From the UHGV virus genome UHGV-1592266: 17,097 nt of DNA. The stretch is one strand, 5' to 3'. This document shows, piece by piece, positions 3,660 to 12,245 of the stretch; within the stretch, counting starts at the first letter, position 1, and each line of letters starts with the position of its first letter. A program made the translations under genes and the position numbers. The notes under the pieces are model-generated. The model did not search any database, had not been told where the DNA came from, and saw only the letters and a program-made list of their open reading frames with translations. This DNA comes from a virus.

Positions 3660-4043
3660 TTAGAAGGGAATTGAATCGTCGTATTCAGGATGATTTTGAT
3701 GATTGCTACTTTGCTGCTGTTGGCTGTTTCCTGAGGTTGCAAATCCAATCTTTGCATTCAGTAATTCAAGAGTGATTGATTGACCATTTTGCCCCTGATA
3801 AACATCAACCCTGATGTTTTCTCCGGTAATTTCCACAATGCCACCTTCAACAAGAACACTACGGTAGTAATCCGCTTGCGCTCCCGGCTTGGCAAATACA
3901 ACGGCGCTGTAGTTTGTCCATTCTTTCTTTTTTGTCTGGCGATCGTAATACTGAACGCCAGCACGGATGTTGAATCCGATATTTTCCCCGGCCTGAAACT
4001 CTCTTGCGGGCTTGTTTAGTCTTACAGTAATCGAATGTGCCAT
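3660..4043 (-). CDS. Phage single-strand DNA-binding-like protein with acidic SSB-type C-terminal tail
   Basis: Start placed at MAHSITVRLNKPAREFQ... The C-terminus ...PEYDDSIPF resembles the SSB-Ct DDDIPF tail, preceded by a Gln/Ser-rich linker. Start ATG overlaps the erf stop (TAATG). Confidence 0.55.
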   Translation of the reverse strand: MAHSITVRLNKPAREFQAGENIGFNIRAGVQYYDRQTKKKEWTNYSAVVFAKPGAQADYYRSVLVEGGIVEITGENIRVDVYQGQNGQSITLELLNAKIGFATSGNSQQQQSSNHQNHPEYDDSIPF

Positions 4044-4648
4044 TAAGCAGCCGCTCCTTCTAATTCGTCTCGTCTGATGTTGTAAACGTCCTGCGCTTTG
4101 TGCTGCTCCGGTGTTCCTTCGAGCATCTTCCACGCTTTGGCGAACGCCTGTTTAAGCTCTTCCACGGTGTTTTTCTGCATTGCTGCGTCAGTGAATGCTT
4201 TTAGAACCTGTTCAGGTGTAGGTGATGGTTTTGATTGCTTTGCTACTGCGTTCTGCTGATGTTTATGCTCGTCTGTATCTGCATCTTTCGCATCATCAAT
4301 GCCGAACAAACCATTGAGGCAATACTTGCGTGCATAAGAGCTTGTAGCTCCCGTAACTTGTGCAGAATCCATCCCTTTCTTGCTTTCTTCCTCTCGTGCA
4401 AGAGCGGTTGCCGTATGACTGTTTTCGCCATCGGTAATAGTTGCCGTGGCTTTCACGTAATACCGATCACCAATCAACACAACTTCATCGCTGATTGATA
4501 AAAACAGGCCATTCAGTAACGGCTTAACGCCTTCAAGAATGTCTTCGCAGCTTCTGTATTTATATTTTCCGAATGAGTTGTACTGATTCTTTGGCGCGTT
4601 CAGATTCTCCTGAATAGCTGCCAGTCTTGCGTAAAATTCTTTGCTCAT
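4043..4648 (-). CDS. erf: Erf-family single-strand annealing recombinase (P22 Erf-like)
   Basis: MSKEFYARLAAIQENLNAPKNQYNSFGKYKYRSCEDILEGVKPLL...GATSSYARKYCLNGLFGIDDAKDAD matches recalled P22 Erf closely. The ORF-track start at 4678 is a TTG; the ATG at 4648 corresponds to the Erf N-terminus. Confidence 0.85.
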   Translation of the reverse strand: MSKEFYARLAAIQENLNAPKNQYNSFGKYKYRSCEDILEGVKPLLNGLFLSISDEVVLIGDRYYVKATATITDGENSHTATALAREEESKKGMDSAQVTGATSSYARKYCLNGLFGIDDAKDADTDEHKHQQNAVAKQSKPSPTPEQVLKAFTDAAMQKNTVEELKQAFAKAWKMLEGTPEQHKAQDVYNIRRDELEGAAA

Positions 4649-4658
4649 ATGATTGTTC

Positions 4659-4829
4659 TCAGAATGGACATTCCCCAAGGAAATAACGCTGATTTAATAC
4701 TTCGACTCGGGACAAATTAAGGCATACCCGCATTCCTTCGCGGTCGCCATTATGGCGATACCAGAGAGCTTTCTGCGTGTACATGCGTCTCTGTAACTTG
4801 CTCTCCTTCACTGTGGTTGCAAGTGACAT
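4659..4829 (-). CDS. Small protein immediately upstream of erf (Arf-like position, 56 aa)
   Basis: ATG at 4829 is preceded by a strong SD (GAAGGAGAT). Frame MSLATTVKESKLQRRMYTQKALWYRHNGDREGMRVCLNLSRVEVLNQRYFLGECPF ends 11 nt before the erf start. Confidence 0.4.
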   Translation of the reverse strand: MSLATTVKESKLQRRMYTQKALWYRHNGDREGMRVCLNLSRVEVLNQRYFLGECPF

Positions 4830-5197: not shown

Positions 5198-6166
5198 TTA
5201 GTAGGTTATTTTTGTTGCGAATACTTCGCCTTTTACGATGGCTGTTATGATATTTTTAGCAACATCTTCTGATGCACCAACCTTGATAAGGTCAGCAAGT
5301 ATTTTGTTATTTACTTCTTTCCGGTGAGCTTTATCCTTTGCTCTACGCTCTTCTTCGTCCTTGATTCTTTTTTCTTCTGCTATTCTGGCTTGCTCTTTTG
5401 CTTCAGCCTCGCGCCGGATTCGTTCAGCCTCCTCCTGTGCTTTTCGGCGTTCTGCTTCAATTGCCGCCTGCTTTTCTCTTTCAGCTCGTTCTGCTGCCTC
5501 TTTTGCTTCGCGCTGTGCTCGTTGCTCGGCTTCAATGCGTTCACGCTCTGCACGTTCCGCTGCGGCCTTAGCTTCTGCTTCTCGCCTTGCTGCTGCTTCA
5601 ATTTCGGCTTTTGCCTTTGCTTCGGCTTCTGCTCTGGCTTTCTCTTCAGCTTCTCTTTTTAAGCGTTCTTCATGCTCTCGCTTTTCCTGCTCCGCTTTGA
5701 GTCTTGCCTCTTCTCTTTGGCGGTCAAATTCGCGATCCATCAAAATAGCTATTTCATGGTCAGACTCAATTTGCTTTGCGAGAGCTTCAGCTGCTGCCTT
5801 AGCTTCTTCTTCGGCTTTAATCCGCGCCTGTTCTTCCTCATAATCAGTAAGAGGCTGGCGCGCCTTGGCTTTCAGCTCATCAAGGCGATCACGCACTGTC
5901 TTGCGGTTGGCATCAATTAGCTTTGGAATTTCCTTCAGTTCAGCAACAAGGTCTTTGCCAAGACCATCGAGATATGTTTTCGTCTGCGCAACTTTATACG
6001 CCAGAGAAGCGATCTCCTTTCTGCCCTTTGCCGTTGTGATATCAGGCACAAAGGACATAACTTCACGTTCAACCTTTTGAAGGATTTCTTCAATCTGGTC
6101 GGCAGACTGAAATACAGTCATTGCATTTGCTTTTTCAATAACAACTAAATCTGTTACTTCACTCAT
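5198..6166 (-). CDS. Coiled-coil phage protein with a long Ala/Glu/Arg/Lys-rich central region (322 aa)
   Basis: Start placed at MSEVTDLVVIEK..., preceded by GGAGG. The central ~150 aa are low-complexity (AEAKAKAEIEAAARREAEAKAAAERAERERIEAEQRAQREAKE). Family not recognised with confidence. Confidence 0.6.
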   Translation of the reverse strand: MSEVTDLVVIEKANAMTVFQSADQIEEILQKVEREVMSFVPDITTAKGRKEIASLAYKVAQTKTYLDGLGKDLVAELKEIPKLIDANRKTVRDRLDELKAKARQPLTDYEEEQARIKAEEEAKAAAEALAKQIESDHEIAILMDREFDRQREEARLKAEQEKREHEERLKREAEEKARAEAEAKAKAEIEAAARREAEAKAAAERAERERIEAEQRAQREAKEAAERAEREKQAAIEAERRKAQEEAERIRREAEAKEQARIAEEKRIKDEEERRAKDKAHRKEVNNKILADLIKVGASEDVAKNIITAIVKGEVFATKITY

Positions 6167-6178
6167 ATATCCTCCGTC

Positions 6179-6207
6179 AAAAAAATTGCCCTCACACTGG
6201 AGGGCAA
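6179..6207 (-). terminator. Intrinsic terminator on the minus strand, directly upstream of the coiled-coil gene RBS
   Basis: Read on the minus strand: TTGCCCTC-CAGTGT-GAGGGCAA hairpin followed by TTTTTTT. Confidence 0.6.
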
Positions 6208-6298
6208 AGAAGATTTCCAATAATCAGAACAAGTCGGCTCCTGTTTAGTTACGAGCGACATTGCTCACATAGCAGACTCGCAAATCTGCTATAGGTGC

Positions 6299-6460
6299 TT
6301 ATTCGCATCGCATGACAACATCAAATTTTTCGAGATTACTTTGTCGCAACAATCCCTCTTCTACGCGGTCAGCTTTTCTATAATTATCAAATTCGAAATG
6401 TTTAATTACTTCTTTCGTTTCTCGCTCTATAACTTCAACAATGTATTTCTTATTCATCAT
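6299..6460 (-). CDS. Small hypothetical protein (53 aa), second gene of cassette 2
   Basis: Start placed at MMNKKYIVEVIERETKEVIKHFEF...; its ATG overlaps the stop of the upstream 92-aa gene (ATGATGA). Confidence 0.45.
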   Translation of the reverse strand: MMNKKYIVEVIERETKEVIKHFEFDNYRKADRVEEGLLRQSNLEKFDVVMRCE

Positions 6461-6735
6461 TCTTCCCCCAGGGCCTTGCTGATGGCTGCCTTGGCTCGTT
6501 TGTATTCGGTTAACTCTCTGCACCCTTCGTCATGCTCGTAAAGGAAGACAAGCTCTTGCAGTGCTTCAAGCAAATCAGGAGCTGCTGCTATCAGTAGCGC
6601 ATCCTCCCTTTCATTTCTTGTTGCTGCTTCAATGTATGTGTCACCAATCGTCACACCATGGAACGTAGTCATCATCTCGTTGACGTTTCTAACCGTGTAC
6701 TTCCATTTACCAGGCGTACCCTTAAACTCTTTCAT
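6457..6735 (-). CDS. Small protein with conserved AAPDLLEALQ...AISKALGEE C-terminal module (paralog B)
   Basis: Start placed at the ATG at 6735 (MKEFKGTPGKWKYTV...), preceded by ACAGAGGTG. The C-terminal half (AAPDLLEALQELV...AKAAISKALGEE) parallels the 83-aa protein at 7256..7507. Confidence 0.55.
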   Translation of the reverse strand: MKEFKGTPGKWKYTVRNVNEMMTTFHGVTIGDTYIEAATRNEREDALLIAAAPDLLEALQELVFLYEHDEGCRELTEYKRAKAAISKALGEE

Positions 6736-6738
6736 ATC

Positions 6739-6783
6739 CACCTCTGTTGTTTATGCCAAAAATAAAGGCCGACTATGCGGCCT
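6739..6783 (-). repeat. About 45-bp direct repeat, copy 1: terminator hairpin plus conserved ACAGAGGTG leader
   Basis: Plus-strand cacctctgttgtttatgccaaaaataaaggccgactatgcggcct is near-identical to the copy at 7512..7557. On the minus strand it reads as hairpin GGCCGCATAGTCGGCC followed by TTTATTTTT. Confidence 0.7.
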
Positions 6784-7252
6784 AGTAGAATACCCAATTT
6801 TCTGTTTCTTGGTTGTGTCCAAAGTTATATTCAATATCTGGTGTTGATGTATCAATATTCTTCATCCCATCAACAAGAGTTGATACAACAGCCAAATCTT
6901 GTTTGATTCTCATCAAATGGTATTTCTTCCGGCGCAATAAACTTTCAATGGCAAGTTTCTTCGTCGGGAACGCAAAAGATCTTTCTGCATTTTTTGCTAC
7001 TTTCTTAATTGCATATCTATTTCTCCTTTGTTTCCATTCCTGTAACCACTGATTTGGTGCTGGTTTAAAATTAACAATCCAATGCGCAGGAACCAACCAT
7101 GCATAATGCTCTGTCTGATGAAAAGCTATATATTGAAGTGCGAATATTTTGATTCCATCTTCTTCAACTGTCGCTTGGAATCTCCAGAAAACAGGCATTC
7201 CATCATGTTCAGTTTCTGATTCAGGAAAAGGTACGCTCCATGATTTTGTCAT
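6782..7252 (-). CDS. Hypothetical protein (156 aa), second gene of cassette 1
   Basis: ATG lies 3 nt after the stop of the 83-aa gene. The coding sequence is AT-rich. No family recognised. Confidence 0.55.
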   Translation of the reverse strand: MTKSWSVPFPESETEHDGMPVFWRFQATVEEDGIKIFALQYIAFHQTEHYAWLVPAHWIVNFKPAPNQWLQEWKQRRNRYAIKKVAKNAERSFAFPTKKLAIESLLRRKKYHLMRIKQDLAVVSTLVDGMKNIDTSTPDIEYNFGHNQETENWVFY

Positions 7253-7255
7253 ATA

Positions 7256-7507
7256 TTACTCATCTCCAAGGGCTTTGCTGATTGCTGACTGTGCTTTCGA
7301 TACTTCATCAGGATAATGGTCATTCCAGTTTTGCTTGTATGCCTTGTTTAGCATCGCTTGCAGGGCTTCGAGCAAATCAGGAGCTGCCTCCATCAATCTC
7401 ACATCACCTCGATGGATGGTTGTATCGTCAAACGTGAAATAAACCCCATCATCGTTAAATCCAGCGCCAACAACATTCCATGGCCTTTTCATTCTTCCTA
7501 CTGTCAT
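7256..7507 (-). CDS. Small protein with conserved AAPDLLEALQ...AISKALGDE C-terminal module (paralog A)
   Basis: MTVGRMKRPWNVV...EAAPDLLEALQAMLNKAYK...AQSAISKALGDE. ATG at 7507 is preceded by ACAGAGGTG. Confidence 0.55.
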   Translation of the reverse strand: MTVGRMKRPWNVVGAGFNDDGVYFTFDDTTIHRGDVRLMEAAPDLLEALQAMLNKAYKQNWNDHYPDEVSKAQSAISKALGDE

Positions 7508-7511
7508 TATT

Positions 7512-7557
7512 CACCTCTGTGTATTTATGCCAAAAATAAAGGCCGACTATGCGGCCT
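7512..7557 (-). repeat. About 45-bp direct repeat, copy 2: terminator hairpin plus conserved leader
   Basis: Plus-strand cacctctgtgtatttatgccaaaaataaaggccgactatgcggcct. The minus-strand hairpin GGCCGCATAGTCGGCC plus T-run sits 5 nt after the stop of the membrane-protein gene. Confidence 0.7.
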
Positions 7558-7561
7558 GAAA

Positions 7562-8011
7562 TTACTTAACCAATGATGCTGCATATTCGATAAGGTAAAG
7601 CTTTGGGGCCAGCCAAATTTTTAACCAAGTCATATTGGTTACTACACCAATAATAAAAATCCCCCACAGAGTCAAAACTACAACCAATGGCATGATAAGA
7701 AGATTAATATCACCTTTGCTATCCCAAACCATTGTCGGCCTGTATTTGGGATTTCCTTTCTCCCATGAATATCCTTCATCACCGATTTTACCTGTCTCAA
7801 CTCTTTGGCACTGCTTCTTCATAAACCAGAAAACCAGTGGGATTGTTAAAATGGCCATTAATGTTTTAATCAGACTGTCAACCATATTCCATAGCAGCAA
7901 CTGATGAACAACATCAGGAATCTGTGCCTGGCTGAATGAAACAGCCGCGTCTATTCCATTACTGGCTTTTTGCAGTAGTTCTACGAGAATCTTGTTTGCT
8001 TGTTCTTCCAT
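7562..8011 (-). CDS. Membrane protein with two predicted transmembrane segments, possibly superinfection-exclusion (SieB-like position)
   Basis: Start placed at the ATG at 8011 (MEEQANKILVELL...), preceded by GAGG; the ORF-track start at 8062 is a TTG. Hydrophobic stretches LIKTLMAILTIPLVFWF and INLLIMPLVVVLTLWGIFIIGVV. Sits between N and the recombination genes, where lambda and P22 carry sieB. Confidence 0.45.
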   Translation of the reverse strand: MEEQANKILVELLQKASNGIDAAVSFSQAQIPDVVHQLLLWNMVDSLIKTLMAILTIPLVFWFMKKQCQRVETGKIGDEGYSWEKGNPKYRPTMVWDSKGDINLLIMPLVVVLTLWGIFIIGVVTNMTWLKIWLAPKLYLIEYAASLVK

Positions 8012-8019
8012 ATCTAACC

Positions 8020-8184
8020 TCAAATAAGTGGTTTGCTGCGAAAATAAATACGTTCCCACCAAGTTCCGTATCTATCTATCCAGTTACACCAATCATCGAC
8101 ATTCCATTTTGTTGTGTCGCATTTTGGCAACTGGCATGAATATCCACCTTCTTTGTAAAGTCGGCGTTTGACTTTCTTGAGCAT
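8020..8184 (-). CDS. Small Cys/Trp-rich hypothetical protein (54 aa) immediately downstream of N
   Basis: ATG at 8184 lies 8 nt after the N stop and is preceded by GAGGTG. Frame MLKKVKRRLYKEGGYSCQLPKCDTTKWNVDDWCNWIDRYGTWWERIYFRSKPLI. Below the ORF-track size cutoff. Confidence 0.4.
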   Translation of the reverse strand: MLKKVKRRLYKEGGYSCQLPKCDTTKWNVDDWCNWIDRYGTWWERIYFRSKPLI

Positions 8185-8192
8185 GGCTCACC

Positions 8193-8525
8193 TCAATCGT
8201 AATAAGCTGGAATTGATTTTCCGCGTTGCTTCTGGCGGCCTGAGCAAGTCACACCCATTTCACTGCGTGGCTTGCTGTACCATGTGCGCTGATTCTTGCG
8301 CTCAATACGTTGCAGGTTGCTTTCAATCTGTTCGTGGTATTCAGCTAGCACCGTAAGGTCTATAGGATTCAGTGCGCTTTCTACTCGTGATTTCGGTTTG
8401 CGATTCAGCGAGAGAATAGGGCGGTTAACTGGTTTTGCGCTTACCCCAACCAACAGGGGATTTGCTGCTTTCCATTGAGCCTGTTTCTCTGCGCGACGTT
8501 CGCGGCGGCGTGTTTGTGCATCCAT
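8193..8525 (-). CDS. N: Antitermination protein N (lambda-type)
   Basis: MDAQTRRRERRAEKQAQWKAANPLLVGVSAKPVNRPILSLNRKPKSRVESALNPIDLTVLAEYH... is a near match to lambda N, including the Arg-rich boxB-binding N-terminus. ATG is preceded by AGGAGAA. Confidence 0.9.
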   Translation of the reverse strand: MDAQTRRRERRAEKQAQWKAANPLLVGVSAKPVNRPILSLNRKPKSRVESALNPIDLTVLAEYHEQIESNLQRIERKNQRTWYSKPRSEMGVTCSGRQKQRGKSIPAYYD

Positions 8526-8793
8526 CTGGATTCTCCTGTCAGTTAGCTTTGGTGGTGTGGTGGCTGGTAGTCTAGCTCCAGCTTGTTGAGTCTCATTCGG
8601 AGGGGTATAACCGGCACCCCAGCGATTTTTCCATGCGACAACGTGCGCGTTATGGCGGCCTTATCGCCCGCGGCTCCCCATCTCGTCCACGCTATTGCTA
8701 GCGTTGGGAGCGCTTCACCGCTCAACAGTAGGTAAGCACTTGCCAGTGACTAGCTGGCTTCACCACACCCCAAAGCCTTCTGCTTTGAATGCT

Positions 8794-8823
8794 GCCCTTC
8801 TTCAGGGCTTAATTTTTAAGAGC
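8794..8823 (-). promoter_or_regulatory. nutL site (boxA plus boxB) for N-dependent antitermination
   Basis: Minus strand reads GCTCTTAAAAATTAA-GCCCTGAAGAAGGGC: boxA-like GCTCTTA followed by the boxB hairpin GCCCTGAAGAAGGGC. Lies downstream of the OL/pL region and upstream of N. Confidence 0.8.
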
Positions 8824-8863
8824 ATCACCTTCATGGTGGTTAGCGCGTCCTGCTGATGGCTTA

Positions 8864-10771: not shown

Positions 10772-11416
10772 ATGACATACGAAAATGACAAATTCCAGGT
10801 TCTGAAGAGCATGAAGGTGCCAGATGATTTTAAATCAAATGGCTTTGTTTATGTGCTTTCTAATGAGTGCATGCCAGGAATTTATAAGATTGGGATGACT
10901 AAGCATTCACCAGAAGTTAGGGCTAAAGAAATTTCAGCCTCTACTGGCGTTCCTAAGCCATTTAAGGTGATAGCAGCCTTTCATTCAAATAATCCCGCAT
11001 CAGATGAAAAACTCATGCATAAAGCCTTTGCAAAAGAGAGGCTTAGTGATAATCGAGAGTTTTTCAAGCTTGAAGATAATGAGCTTTCTGAATCTCTAAA
11101 TGAAATAAGGGCGCTGGTTGGCCCTGAAAGAAATGGCGAGACGGCAGAATACGCAATTTACGACTCATTCATTTCTTTTCGCCATGAAAATGAGCTTGAT
11201 CTTAATGAGGAGCTTATAGAGCAAGGTCTGGGTAGTGTAGTTGGTCATCTTCCTGCGGTGAAAAATTTCCTTATTCGCGCCGGAATTGATTACGCGAAGC
11301 AACTGATAAGCAAATATAACTCATCGATAGTTATTAATACAGATGGCAGTGTGGTGATGGTTAAGTCTCTTGAAGCCCAATGCTTTGATGCGGAGGTTGG
11401 AAATGAGCCTGGCTGA
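10772..11416 (+). CDS. T5orf172-domain (GIY-YIG-like) protein inserted between cII and O
   Basis: N-terminal GFVYVLSNECMPGIYKIGMTKHSPEVRAKEIS...PFKVIAAFHSNNPASDEKLMHKAFAKERLSDNREFFKL fits the T5orf172 pattern (VYVL.N...KIG.T...R..E.....P.F.V......E..LH..F...R...EFF). AT-rich relative to flanks. ATG is preceded by AGGAG. The 3' end overlaps the O start by 14 nt. Confidence 0.6.
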   Translation: MTYENDKFQVLKSMKVPDDFKSNGFVYVLSNECMPGIYKIGMTKHSPEVRAKEISASTGVPKPFKVIAAFHSNNPASDEKLMHKAFAKERLSDNREFFKLEDNELSESLNEIRALVGPERNGETAEYAIYDSFISFRHENELDLNEELIEQGLGSVVGHLPAVKNFLIRAGIDYAKQLISKYNSSIVINTDGSVVMVKSLEAQCFDAEVGNEPG

Positions 11417-12245
11417 AGTATTTTACCTGTCGAAGAGTGAACCTGTTGAACAGGAGCGAAGAGTGGCTGATATCGATGATGGTTACACCAGATTCGCTAA
11501 CGAGCTGCTGGAAGCTATCGCAAGTGCTGATTTAACCGCTCGCCAGTTGAAAGTTATGCTGGCCTACGTCCGGAAAACATATGGATTCAATAAGAAAACA
11601 GATCGAATAGCCGATGAGCAAATTGCTCAGTTAACAGGACTGTCAAGGCAGAATGTTAACAAGGCTAAAAAAGAACTGATTTCAATGAATTGCCTGTTTA
11701 TGGATGGAAATCAAATCGGTGTAAACAGTGAGGTATCTGCGTGGCAATTCAGCAAGTGTCTCCAAGTTAGCAACTTTGTCTCGAAGTTAGAGACAAAAAA
11801 TGTCTCCAAATTAGAGACACTCAATGTCTCGAAGTTAGAGACACACAAAAGACATTCTTTAAAGACAAAAGAAAATATTAATAAACCCCCTATATCCCCC
11901 AAAAAAGTTTCTCAGAAGTTCGACCCGCTAGAAACAGAGTTGCCTGATTGGTTATCAGCAGAAACATGGTTGTCGTGGGTTACCTATCGCAAGGAGATAG
12001 GTAAGTCGATCAAGTCTAAGCAAAGTGTCACTCAGGCTATCAACGTTCTAAGCAGAAGTCTGGAGAAGGGATATACACCTGAAGAAATTATAAACCAGAG
12101 CATCGCCAGTGGTTGGCAGGGGATTTTTGAACCCAAGACTCCAAAGGGGAAATCTCAACCGAGGCCGCAGCAGCGAGCTATGCAGGAAAACTTTGCCGCC
12201 AAAGATTACGGGCAAACTGAAATGCCTTCATGGGCGCAGGAGTGA
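11403..12245 (+). CDS. O: Replication initiator O (lambda O-like, iteron-binding)
   Basis: Start placed at MSLAEVFYL..., preceded by GGAGG. The segment ERRVADIDDGYTRFANELLEAIASADLTARQLKVMLAYVRKTYGFNKKTDRI parallels the lambda O N-terminal domain. The ori iterons lie inside the gene. Confidence 0.8.
   Translation: MSLAEVFYLSKSEPVEQERRVADIDDGYTRFANELLEAIASADLTARQLKVMLAYVRKTYGFNKKTDRIADEQIAQLTGLSRQNVNKAKKELISMNCLFMDGNQIGVNSEVSAWQFSKCLQVSNFVSKLETKNVSKLETLNVSKLETHKRHSLKTKENINKPPISPKKVSQKFDPLETELPDWLSAETWLSWVTYRKEIGKSIKSKQSVTQAINVLSRSLEKGYTPEEIINQSIASGWQGIFEPKTPKGKSQPRPQQRAMQENFAAKDYGQTEMPSWAQE
11757..11843. repeat. Replication-origin iterons: four ~19-bp repeats followed by an AT-rich tract
   Basis: tgtctccaagttagcaact, tgtctcgaagttagagaca, tgtctccaaattagagaca and tgtctcgaagttagagaca begin at 11757, 11777, 11801 and 11825. 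Each carries an internal TCTC/GAGA dyad. The tract 11844..11910 is AT-rich. Confidence 0.75.

Follow-up and report, generated by a model that had tools for sequence, protein, structure and literature searches.

The modular theory of lambdoid phages includes boundary 'linker' sequences (Susskind and Botstein; Clark et al. on HK620; summarised in PMC3233612), and short conserved sequences at module joints are an established idea that is disputed as a general mechanism (PMC3233612). Here we describe a sequence of this kind that occurs twice in a 17,097-nucleotide (nt) stretch of the virus genome UHGV-1592266; this whole stretch is called the window below. The name E is given to each copy of the repeat, read on the minus strand, which is the transcribed strand of the early-left (pL) operon in the window. 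Like the linkers of the modular theory, E is short, intergenic and situated at module joints, has unrelated flanks and is long enough for homologous exchange. It differs from them in also having the form of a functional unit, a putative terminator joined to a ribosome-binding site, and in being documented in hundreds of genomes. Another comparison is with tL1 and the tL2 cluster, the N-sensitive terminators of lambda's pL operon. Like them, E is a terminator-like hairpin with a U-run that comes after nutL and N; unmodified polymerase would be predicted to halt at it and N-modified polymerase to pass, and tL2a itself is present in the window (Table 1). E is, however, not among the named terminators, save for a truncated remnant in lambda; it is fused to a translation start and recurs between cassettes. 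The lambda ral-ea10 region (33,905-34,086) is directly homologous to the locus and shares its operon, order and orientation, and most E-bearing phages have this very spacer and the lambda small RNA (sRNA) LPR1/PreS after E, whereas the window has four genes between E and PreS, and E twice. We know of no terminator named at the position of lambda's truncated E. Morons possess a promoter of their own and are typically expressed from the prophage. The cassette genes adjoining E resemble morons (Juhala et al. 2000) in being small accessory genes of unknown function, accompanied by a terminator between conserved phage genes, but they have no credible promoter, and a terminator-like site stands in front of them instead. 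Lacking a promoter and having a terminator ahead of them, they should depend on pL and N. Single genes bounded by a hairpin repeat, set in one orientation behind a common promoter and open to reshuffling, also recall the attC cassettes of integrons. E is a further instance of a conserved boundary sequence that is at the same time a putative N-sensitive terminator, and not a new kind of system.

The two direct repeats read as the preliminary description of this DNA had given them. They are minus-strand elements of 45 nt (copy 1) and 46 nt (copy 2), and share a core of 34 nt (6750-6783 and 7524-7557), 100% identical in the two and spaced 774 nt apart (repeat finder, family D12). When the whole window is searched for the core with up to 3 mismatches, exactly 2 sites are found, against 0.00 expected from 200 dinucleotide shuffles. 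The full copies differ only between GGCATAAA and ACAGAGGTG, where CA-AC stands opposite TACAC: two substitutions and one indel. On the minus strand, E begins with the hairpin AGGCCG-CATAGT-CGGCCT and continues through UUUAUUUUU, GGCAUAAA and ACAGAGGUG to an ATG; divided more finely, the hairpin of both copies is followed by TTTATTTTT, GGCATAAA, (C/T)A(A)CACAGAGGTG, 3-4 nt and the ATG. The hairpin has six stem pairs, five of them G-C, around a loop of 6 nt, with the tail TTATTTTTGG behind it; it is scored as terminator-like on the minus strand, has an energy of -9.7 kcal/mol and forms in the minimum-free-energy structure of each copy. The U-tract UUUAUUUUU carries U at 8 of 9 positions, begins at the last base of the stem in both copies and exists on the minus (pL) strand only. 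Downstream, GAGG precedes the ATG at 7507 of an 83-amino-acid (aa) open reading frame (ORF) in copy 2 and the ATG at 6735 of a 92-aa ORF in copy 1. Both genes belong to phrog_1273, in agreement with the earlier picture of a GC hairpin and T-run followed by a leader and the ATG of a paralogous gene, and the coordinates agree with its statement that the repeats bracket a unit of 83-aa and 156-aa genes and precede a second cassette. Upstream, the TAG stop codon of the 156-aa ORF (6784-6782) overlaps the hairpin base of copy 1, and the TAA stop codon of a membrane-protein ORF (7562-7564) lies 4 nt ahead of the hairpin of copy 2.

E is not a nut site: its hairpin has the 6-nt loop CAUAGU and no boxA, and the real nutL is found elsewhere in the window (Table 1). 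A promoter within E is rejected as well, as had been claimed beforehand. In the sole promoter-like match there (7533-7506), the -10 hexamer falls on the ATG, and the region contains 5 such matches, fewer than the 9.3 expected from shuffles. Against Rfam, the whole window gives no match at the gathering thresholds, and 6000-8700 gives none even at an E-value of up to 1.

The minus strand of the window is a lambda-type pL operon, in which nutL, N, a 54-aa ORF, a 149-aa membrane protein, E copy 2 and the 83-aa and 156-aa genes are followed by E copy 1, the 92-aa and 53-aa genes, the PreS block, a 322-aa ORF and, later, Erf. The surroundings of nutL (8764-8858) are 97% identical to lambda 35,489-35,583. 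Between N and E copy 2 there is no other terminator-like site, so that E is the first of intrinsic form that transcription meets after a lambda-type nutL and N. From this position, the need for read-through by N can be soundly inferred.

We consider it probable that E is an intrinsic terminator overridden by N, combined with a translation start, and that it additionally works as a homology linker in the exchange of cassettes. On the pL transcript, the G+C hairpin of 6 base pairs (bp) with its U-run would act as a Rho-independent terminator, at which polymerase without N modification would halt and which N-modified polymerase would pass; the accessory genes behind E would therefore be delayed-early and N-dependent. 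The 3' half of E (GGCAUAAA..ACAGAGGUG), as can be read directly from its letters, gives a leader and a Shine-Dalgarno sequence to any gene that follows. E and the PreS/tL2a block would serve as homology anchors, because phages with wholly different flanks share these 34-45 bp; this mechanism we infer from a combinatorial pattern that is itself observed. General or phage-encoded (Erf or Red-type) recombination at the anchors would then exchange, add or remove the genes that lie in between. The length of the linker, 34 nt identical and 45-46 nt near-identical, meets the minimum of ~30 bp quoted for Red-beta, and Rad52-like phage recombinases, Erf included, recombine short or diverged homologies (PMC3945230).

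At least 120 IMG/VR contigs contain the exact 34-mer, and so do 90 phage records, among them those of Shiga toxin (Stx)-converting phages, CUS-3, Sf101 and mEp phages. A 43-mer of E occurs at 911 places in 850 of the 5,426 complete Escherichia coli genomes, or about one genome in six. In more than 200 loci, E lies only between N and PreS/tL2a (where PreS is present) and in a single orientation. The general layout of ~200 loci is N, slot A, E, slot B, PreS/tL2a (in most loci), further genes and the recombination module. Slot A contains the membrane-protein gene, which is the most frequent upstream partner of E, or a 207-aa, 107-aa or 230-aa ORF, the 156-aa gene, or nothing, and E stands directly behind N in five loci. 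Slot B contains 0-3 small genes. Neither E nor the PreS homologue carries a label in any of the records inspected. In the literature, the sequence of the element matched only one unrelated paper in which lambda sequence is printed, and no description of this hotspot was found.

We clustered the 300 nt on each side of the listed IMG/VR copies and of the two window copies (122 in all). Among the matches listed, these copies have at least 10 unrelated upstream and at least 6 downstream classes of flank in 23 combinations; the class counts are not independent events, because many of the sampled prophages are near-identical. On the 5' side, similarity between flank classes ends where the hairpin begins, and on the 3' side it ends past CAACAGA, after which the sequence continues either with GG and a start codon or with ATAAACACTG. 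The commonest downstream class, L1, accounts for 65 of the 122 clustered copies and is the lambda spacer. The search for the 45-mer in other prophages, proposed at the outset, thus shows a recurrent junction with homology ending at its edges. Two upstream classes, R2 and R3, are found with either state of a C/T variant located just 3' of the core, and all four combinations are present. These combinations, like the four flank states of the 156-aa gene given below, fit crossovers within E, and could also be produced by recurrent mutation or by crossover in neighbouring shared genes.

As a check on circularity, the neighbours of E were used as anchors in place of E. The final 25 nt of the membrane-protein gene are found at 106 places, in 105 of which E comes next. 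Among the 105 fully read sequences anchored in this way, the 6-bp stem is intact in 82 and 5 bp long in 3, and 1 sequence is a deletion variant without E. Variants of the E stem include changes that preserve pairing as G-U and one compensatory A-U pair. A hairpin with at most one mismatch is found just upstream of 19 of the 27 close homologues of the 92-aa protein, 5 of the 31 homologues with 40-69% identity and 5 of the 21 with less than 40% identity.

E could instead be a passive island, kept as a terminator and translation start, around which joints arise by illegitimate recombination and are then selected (the Hendrix/Juhala model). Some joints indeed form without long shared sequence, for example where the 156-aa gene is connected to PreS via an unrelated 44-nt link, and breakpoints are seen inside the hairpin (in lambda and mEp213-type phages) and between the T-run and the leader. 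Upstream ORFs end 0-4 nt from the hairpin, as would be expected from selection trimming the joints, and many mosaic boundaries have no conserved sequences (PMC3233612). Random joining, however, would not recreate one sequence of 34-45 bp between 23 flank combinations. All four possible flank states of the 156-aa gene occur, as do loop-out products, and the 34 identical bp satisfy the Red-type minimum in a phage that encodes Erf. We regard this explanation as somewhat unlikely.

Comparison of the window with its relatives places breakpoints at both edges of E copy 1 (6741-6743 and 6782-6783) and of E copy 2 (7501-7524 and 7557-7560). Further breakpoints are located at the 5' end of PreS (6266/6267), at the boundary of the 92-aa and 53-aa genes (6455-6491), in the stretch coding for AAPDLLEALQ in the two phrog_1273 genes (6555-6557 and 7366-7387), at the boundary of the 83-aa and 156-aa genes (7254-7266) and at the start of the membrane-protein gene (8027-8047). 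The preliminary description had expected modules inserted or duplicated by recombination at a conserved boundary. The flanks establish the boundary, but E is only one of several joints, and 'duplicated' is wrong, as set out below.

The presence of a hairpin-forming repeat on the flanks of single-gene cassettes, in arrays of up to two, would also be expected if E were a site for site-specific cassette recombination, like attC, or a mobile repeat resembling miniature inverted-repeat transposable elements (MITE) or repetitive extragenic palindromic (REP) sequences. The breakpoints fall at no fewer than four positions in and around E and define no single crossover point, and the hairpin is a perfect 18-mer, far below the length of attC. 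No integron-type or otherwise dedicated integrase is found among the neighbour genes compared (N, small ORFs, Erf), and general homologous recombination would explain the exchange. E is confined to the N-PreS interval in one orientation, and neither terminal inverted repeats nor target-site duplications are apparent in the displayed flanks. Both versions of this idea are highly improbable.

The window carries two copies of E 774 nt apart in direct orientation, each before a member of one protein family, which is what a recent local tandem duplication of a terminator-plus-gene unit would leave behind. The genes themselves tell against this origin. The 83-aa and 92-aa proteins are paralogues, both of phrog_1273, with 47% amino-acid identity over the C-terminal 51 residues only and with unrelated N-terminal halves, and the DNA of the two units is diverged except for E and one 49-nt motif. 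Each copy of E is found apart from the other, together with its own gene, in other phages, and each half of the window arrangement matches them with 98-100% identity. A recent duplication is accordingly very hard to credit. Because the coding parts are deeply diverged while E is near-identical, the window appears to hold two stacked modules that each brought an E, [E + 83 aa + 156 aa] and [E + 92 aa + 53 aa]. One crossover in the shared 156-aa gene or in E, between differing flank states, suffices to produce it.

The 156-aa gene has E on both sides in 6 loci and the window, only downstream in 16, only upstream in 13 and on neither side in 2, including phage 933W. Two copies of E are present in 10 of the 205 other loci, around the 156-aa gene or the membrane-protein gene, and are 525-540 nt apart in nine of them. 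In three IMG/VR loci (L132, L165 and L211), the membrane-protein gene lies between two E-type elements ~525 nt apart; being flanked by E on both sides, it behaves as a single-gene cassette, like the 156-aa gene. Another locus (L064) has the arrangement of the window but lacks the 83-aa gene, and the predicted loop-out product, in which the membrane-protein gene, E and the 92-aa gene follow each other, is present as well. The exact two-cassette arrangement is absent at ≥80% coverage from the 5,426 E. coli genomes and from 50,697 phage records, and two IMG/VR stretches that adjoin each other (L181 and L075) carry it with 100% identity.

The 49-nt motif shared by the two phrog_1273 genes, which codes for AAPDLLEALQ, behaves as an intragenic mosaic joint. 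Across the loci compared (L001-L266), phrog_1273 proteins display at least 6 N-terminal and at least 4 C-terminal types, joined at the invariant LIAAAPDLLEALQ, and all of the proteins compared end in AISKALG(D/E)E. Such combinations of types suggest a fast-evolving protein family of two parts with early expression from pL. Searches with the cassette proteins return nothing in Pfam, NCBIfam or PADLOC, only families of unknown function in PHROGs, and chance-level results in sequence searches of PDB.

Several observations weigh against E as an N-overridden terminator that doubles as a linker. The stem has an internal mismatch in 19 of the 105 copies anchored in the membrane-protein gene, about a fifth, and covariation in the stem gives 93.5% paired cells against 93.3% in shuffles, a statistically uninformative result. 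The 76-78-nt contexts of E fold no better than shuffles (z = -0.45 and -1.11), as is expected where only one small hairpin is present. A stem of 6 bp with -9.7 kcal/mol is short, and termination at E may therefore be only partial. The sampling is redundant, with many near-identical prophages, and the two-copy state could have come about through a crossover in the shared 156-aa gene instead of in E. Finally, 8 of the 27 close homologues of the 92-aa gene have no hairpin in front of them, and neither does the 156-aa gene of phage 933W, in which E is absent. The absence of the repeat from relatives carrying the same genes, named in the preliminary description as grounds for refutation, is thus observed in part. 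Since some relatives carry these genes without the hairpin, E is an independent module and not obligatory to either gene.

The hairpin of E also occurs in a second linker family, which we call E2, AGGCCGCATAGTCGGCCTTCTTTTGGCAGCAAGCCACAGAGGTG (...GGCCTTCTTTTGGCAGCAAGCCACAGAGGTG; AGGCCGCATAGTCGGCCTTCTTTTGGCAGCAAGCCACAGAGGTGAATATG). E2 has E's exact hairpin with a different T-run and leader, and is frequent in front of more distant relatives of the 92-aa protein (loci L218-L263, L275, L280 and L284). It is found in prophages of Enterobacter, Pluralibacter and Pseudocitrobacter behind many different upstream genes, the stop codons of which abut the hairpin. In relatives of the 92-aa protein that are more distant still, the gene is preceded by another terminator hairpin or by a promoter. 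GTDB was scanned with the 19-nt hairpin, using one genome per species. True copies of E or E2 are found only in Enterobacterales (Pseudocitrobacter, Enterobacter, Pluralibacter, Tatumella and Shimwellia) and in contigs of metagenome-assembled genomes (MAGs) from the gut. Exact matches to the hairpin outside Enterobacterales have no E context and come mostly from G+C-rich genomes, and for these reasons we read them as chance; the exception is one match in Dialister with both hairpin and T-run.

The 16-nt hairpin, including the loop CATAGT, is the same in E and E2 beside genes that are only 35-55% identical to those of the window, an identity that may have come from the spread of one allele by recombination or from a sequence-specific role. 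In the latter case, the hairpin would be a binding site for a protein or RNA, a determinant of processing or stability, or a 3' end of the Hfq type. A plain terminator needs no fixed loop, and this loop is kept despite the other T-run and leader. Against such a role, the loop variants CATAAT, AATAGT, AATATT and CATGGT are about as frequent as stem variants, Rfam has no match, and pairing of PreS with the E leader is at chance level, no better than with shuffled targets. Recombinational spread of one allele explains the identity equally, and a sequence-specific role seems distinctly unlikely.

A stronger version of the linker idea is that E is kept as a dedicated exchange site, bounding an array of promoterless, N-gated cassettes that Erf or Red would move between lambdoid phages. 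The genes of the 156-aa protein, the membrane protein and phrog_1273 would then each be bounded by identical 34-45-bp linkers and exchanged between co-infecting or resident phages. If this were true, the array would be an analogue of the integron based on homologous recombination, and the conservation of hairpin and loop in two families of elements would reflect selection or drive for exchangeability. We hold this version to be speculative and rather unlikely.

Table 1. Positions of the E copies and of other features in the window.
Feature	Position	Strand	Details
nutL	8794..8824	minus	boxA-like TGCTCTTA; boxB GCCCTGAAGAAGGGC at 8808-8794
N antiterminator	8193..8525	minus	Pfam N36; 8269-8572 is 97% identical to lambda N
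54-aa ORF	between N and membrane-protein gene	minus	DUF5484
149-aa predicted membrane protein	7562..8011	minus	phrog_3054; 'TM helix-containing protein' (TM, transmembrane) in one phage record
E copy 2	7512..7557	minus	hairpin 7557-7540; T-run 7540-7532; GGCATAAA 7531-7524; TACACAGAGGTG 7523-7512 (Shine-Dalgarno GAGG)
83-aa gene	7256..7507	minus	phrog_1273; first gene of the cassette between the E copies
AAPDLLEALQ-coding stretch, 83-aa gene	7357..7405	minus	counterpart of 6555-6603 (family D7)
156-aa gene	6782..7252	minus	phrog_1636, family of unknown function
E copy 1	6739..6783	minus	hairpin 6783-6766; T-run 6766-6758; GGCATAAA 6757-6750; CAACAGAGGTG 6749-6739
92-aa gene	6457..6735	minus	phrog_1273; first gene behind E copy 1
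AAPDLLEALQ-coding stretch, 92-aa gene	6555..6603	minus	82% identical to 7357-7405 (family D7)
53-aa gene	6299..6460	minus	phrog_6949
PreS homologue	6180..6267	minus	6180-6266 is 98.9% identical to lambda 33,925-34,011; tL2a hairpin 6207-6186 and T-run
Erf-family single-strand annealing protein	4043..4678	minus	phage recombinase of a class shown to act on short or diverged homologies

In lambda, a 5'-truncated E is located at 34,055-34,087, right behind the stop codon of ral, and is ~94% identical to both window copies. The lambda sequence at this place reads ...GCC TGA TAG TGGCC TTTATTTTT GGCATAAA TAACAGA ATAAACACTGCACTG..., and matches the 3' two-thirds of E; a spacer hairpin comes next, and then LPR1/PreS with tL2a after it. 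Lambda has no E hairpin because the end of ral replaces the 5' arm, while the linker is kept. The sRNA LPR1/PreS of lambda is ~88 nt long, depends on Hfq and has the terminator tL2a as its 3' end (bioRxiv 10.1101/2024.10.31.621285). The PreS block forms the conserved downstream border of the cassette slot, and the point where similarity between the window and its relatives sets in is exactly the 5' end reported for the 88-nt RNA (GGAGCAATG...). Directly 5' of PreS, the window has the hairpin ATAGCAGA-TTTGCGAG-TCTGCTAT (6268-6295, minus strand), and lambda has an unrelated hairpin, GTGTATTCA-TTCCAACGAG-TGAATACAC, at the matching place (34,012-34,040). Similar hairpins of unlike sequence at one position could mark where processing sets free the 5' end of the sRNA. 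The non-coding stretch that follows E in most phages was also considered as AgvB, an anti-sRNA of enterohaemorrhagic E. coli (EHEC). This identity was rejected, because the AgvB and EcOnc RNAs sit downstream of PR' (PMC4104026); the stretch is the lambda ral-ea10 spacer with LPR1/PreS.

Other features of the window concern the pL operon and its surroundings. The genes within each cassette are tightly packed: the stop codon of the 92-aa gene overlaps the start codon of the 53-aa gene (ATGA, 6457-6460), and the 156-aa gene starts 3 nt past the stop codon of the 83-aa gene (7252-7258). Such packing points to coupled translation of the genes in each cassette. The interval between nutL and N (8573-8763) is ~110 nt longer than that of lambda, with both of its flanks 97% identical to lambda, and the difference in length appears to be an insertion or replacement in the N leader. 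Downstream of PreS, a 322-aa ORF (5198-6166, minus strand) occupies the position of lambda ea10, matches only function-unknown families in PHROGs and is rich in imperfect direct DNA repeats (families D1-D3, 5328-5812). On the plus strand, 3-4 tandem units of 24 nt with the palindrome TGTCTC-N6-GAGACA are present at 11754-11848, inside a 291-aa ORF (11370-12245). The array looks like the iterons of a lambda-type replication origin within an O-like gene.

E provides a countable case for the dispute over phage mosaicism, in which homologous exchange at short linkers is set against random joining followed by selection. One element of 34-45 bp stands between two hypervariable slots in about one-sixth of complete E. 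coli genomes. The variable accessory slot of the pL operon is also mapped, bordered by N and E at one end and by PreS and tL2a at the other. The genes of the slot are predicted to be expressed only after N acts, and this predicted dependence on N makes the slot a sensible place in which to seek early functions in host takeover or counter-defence.

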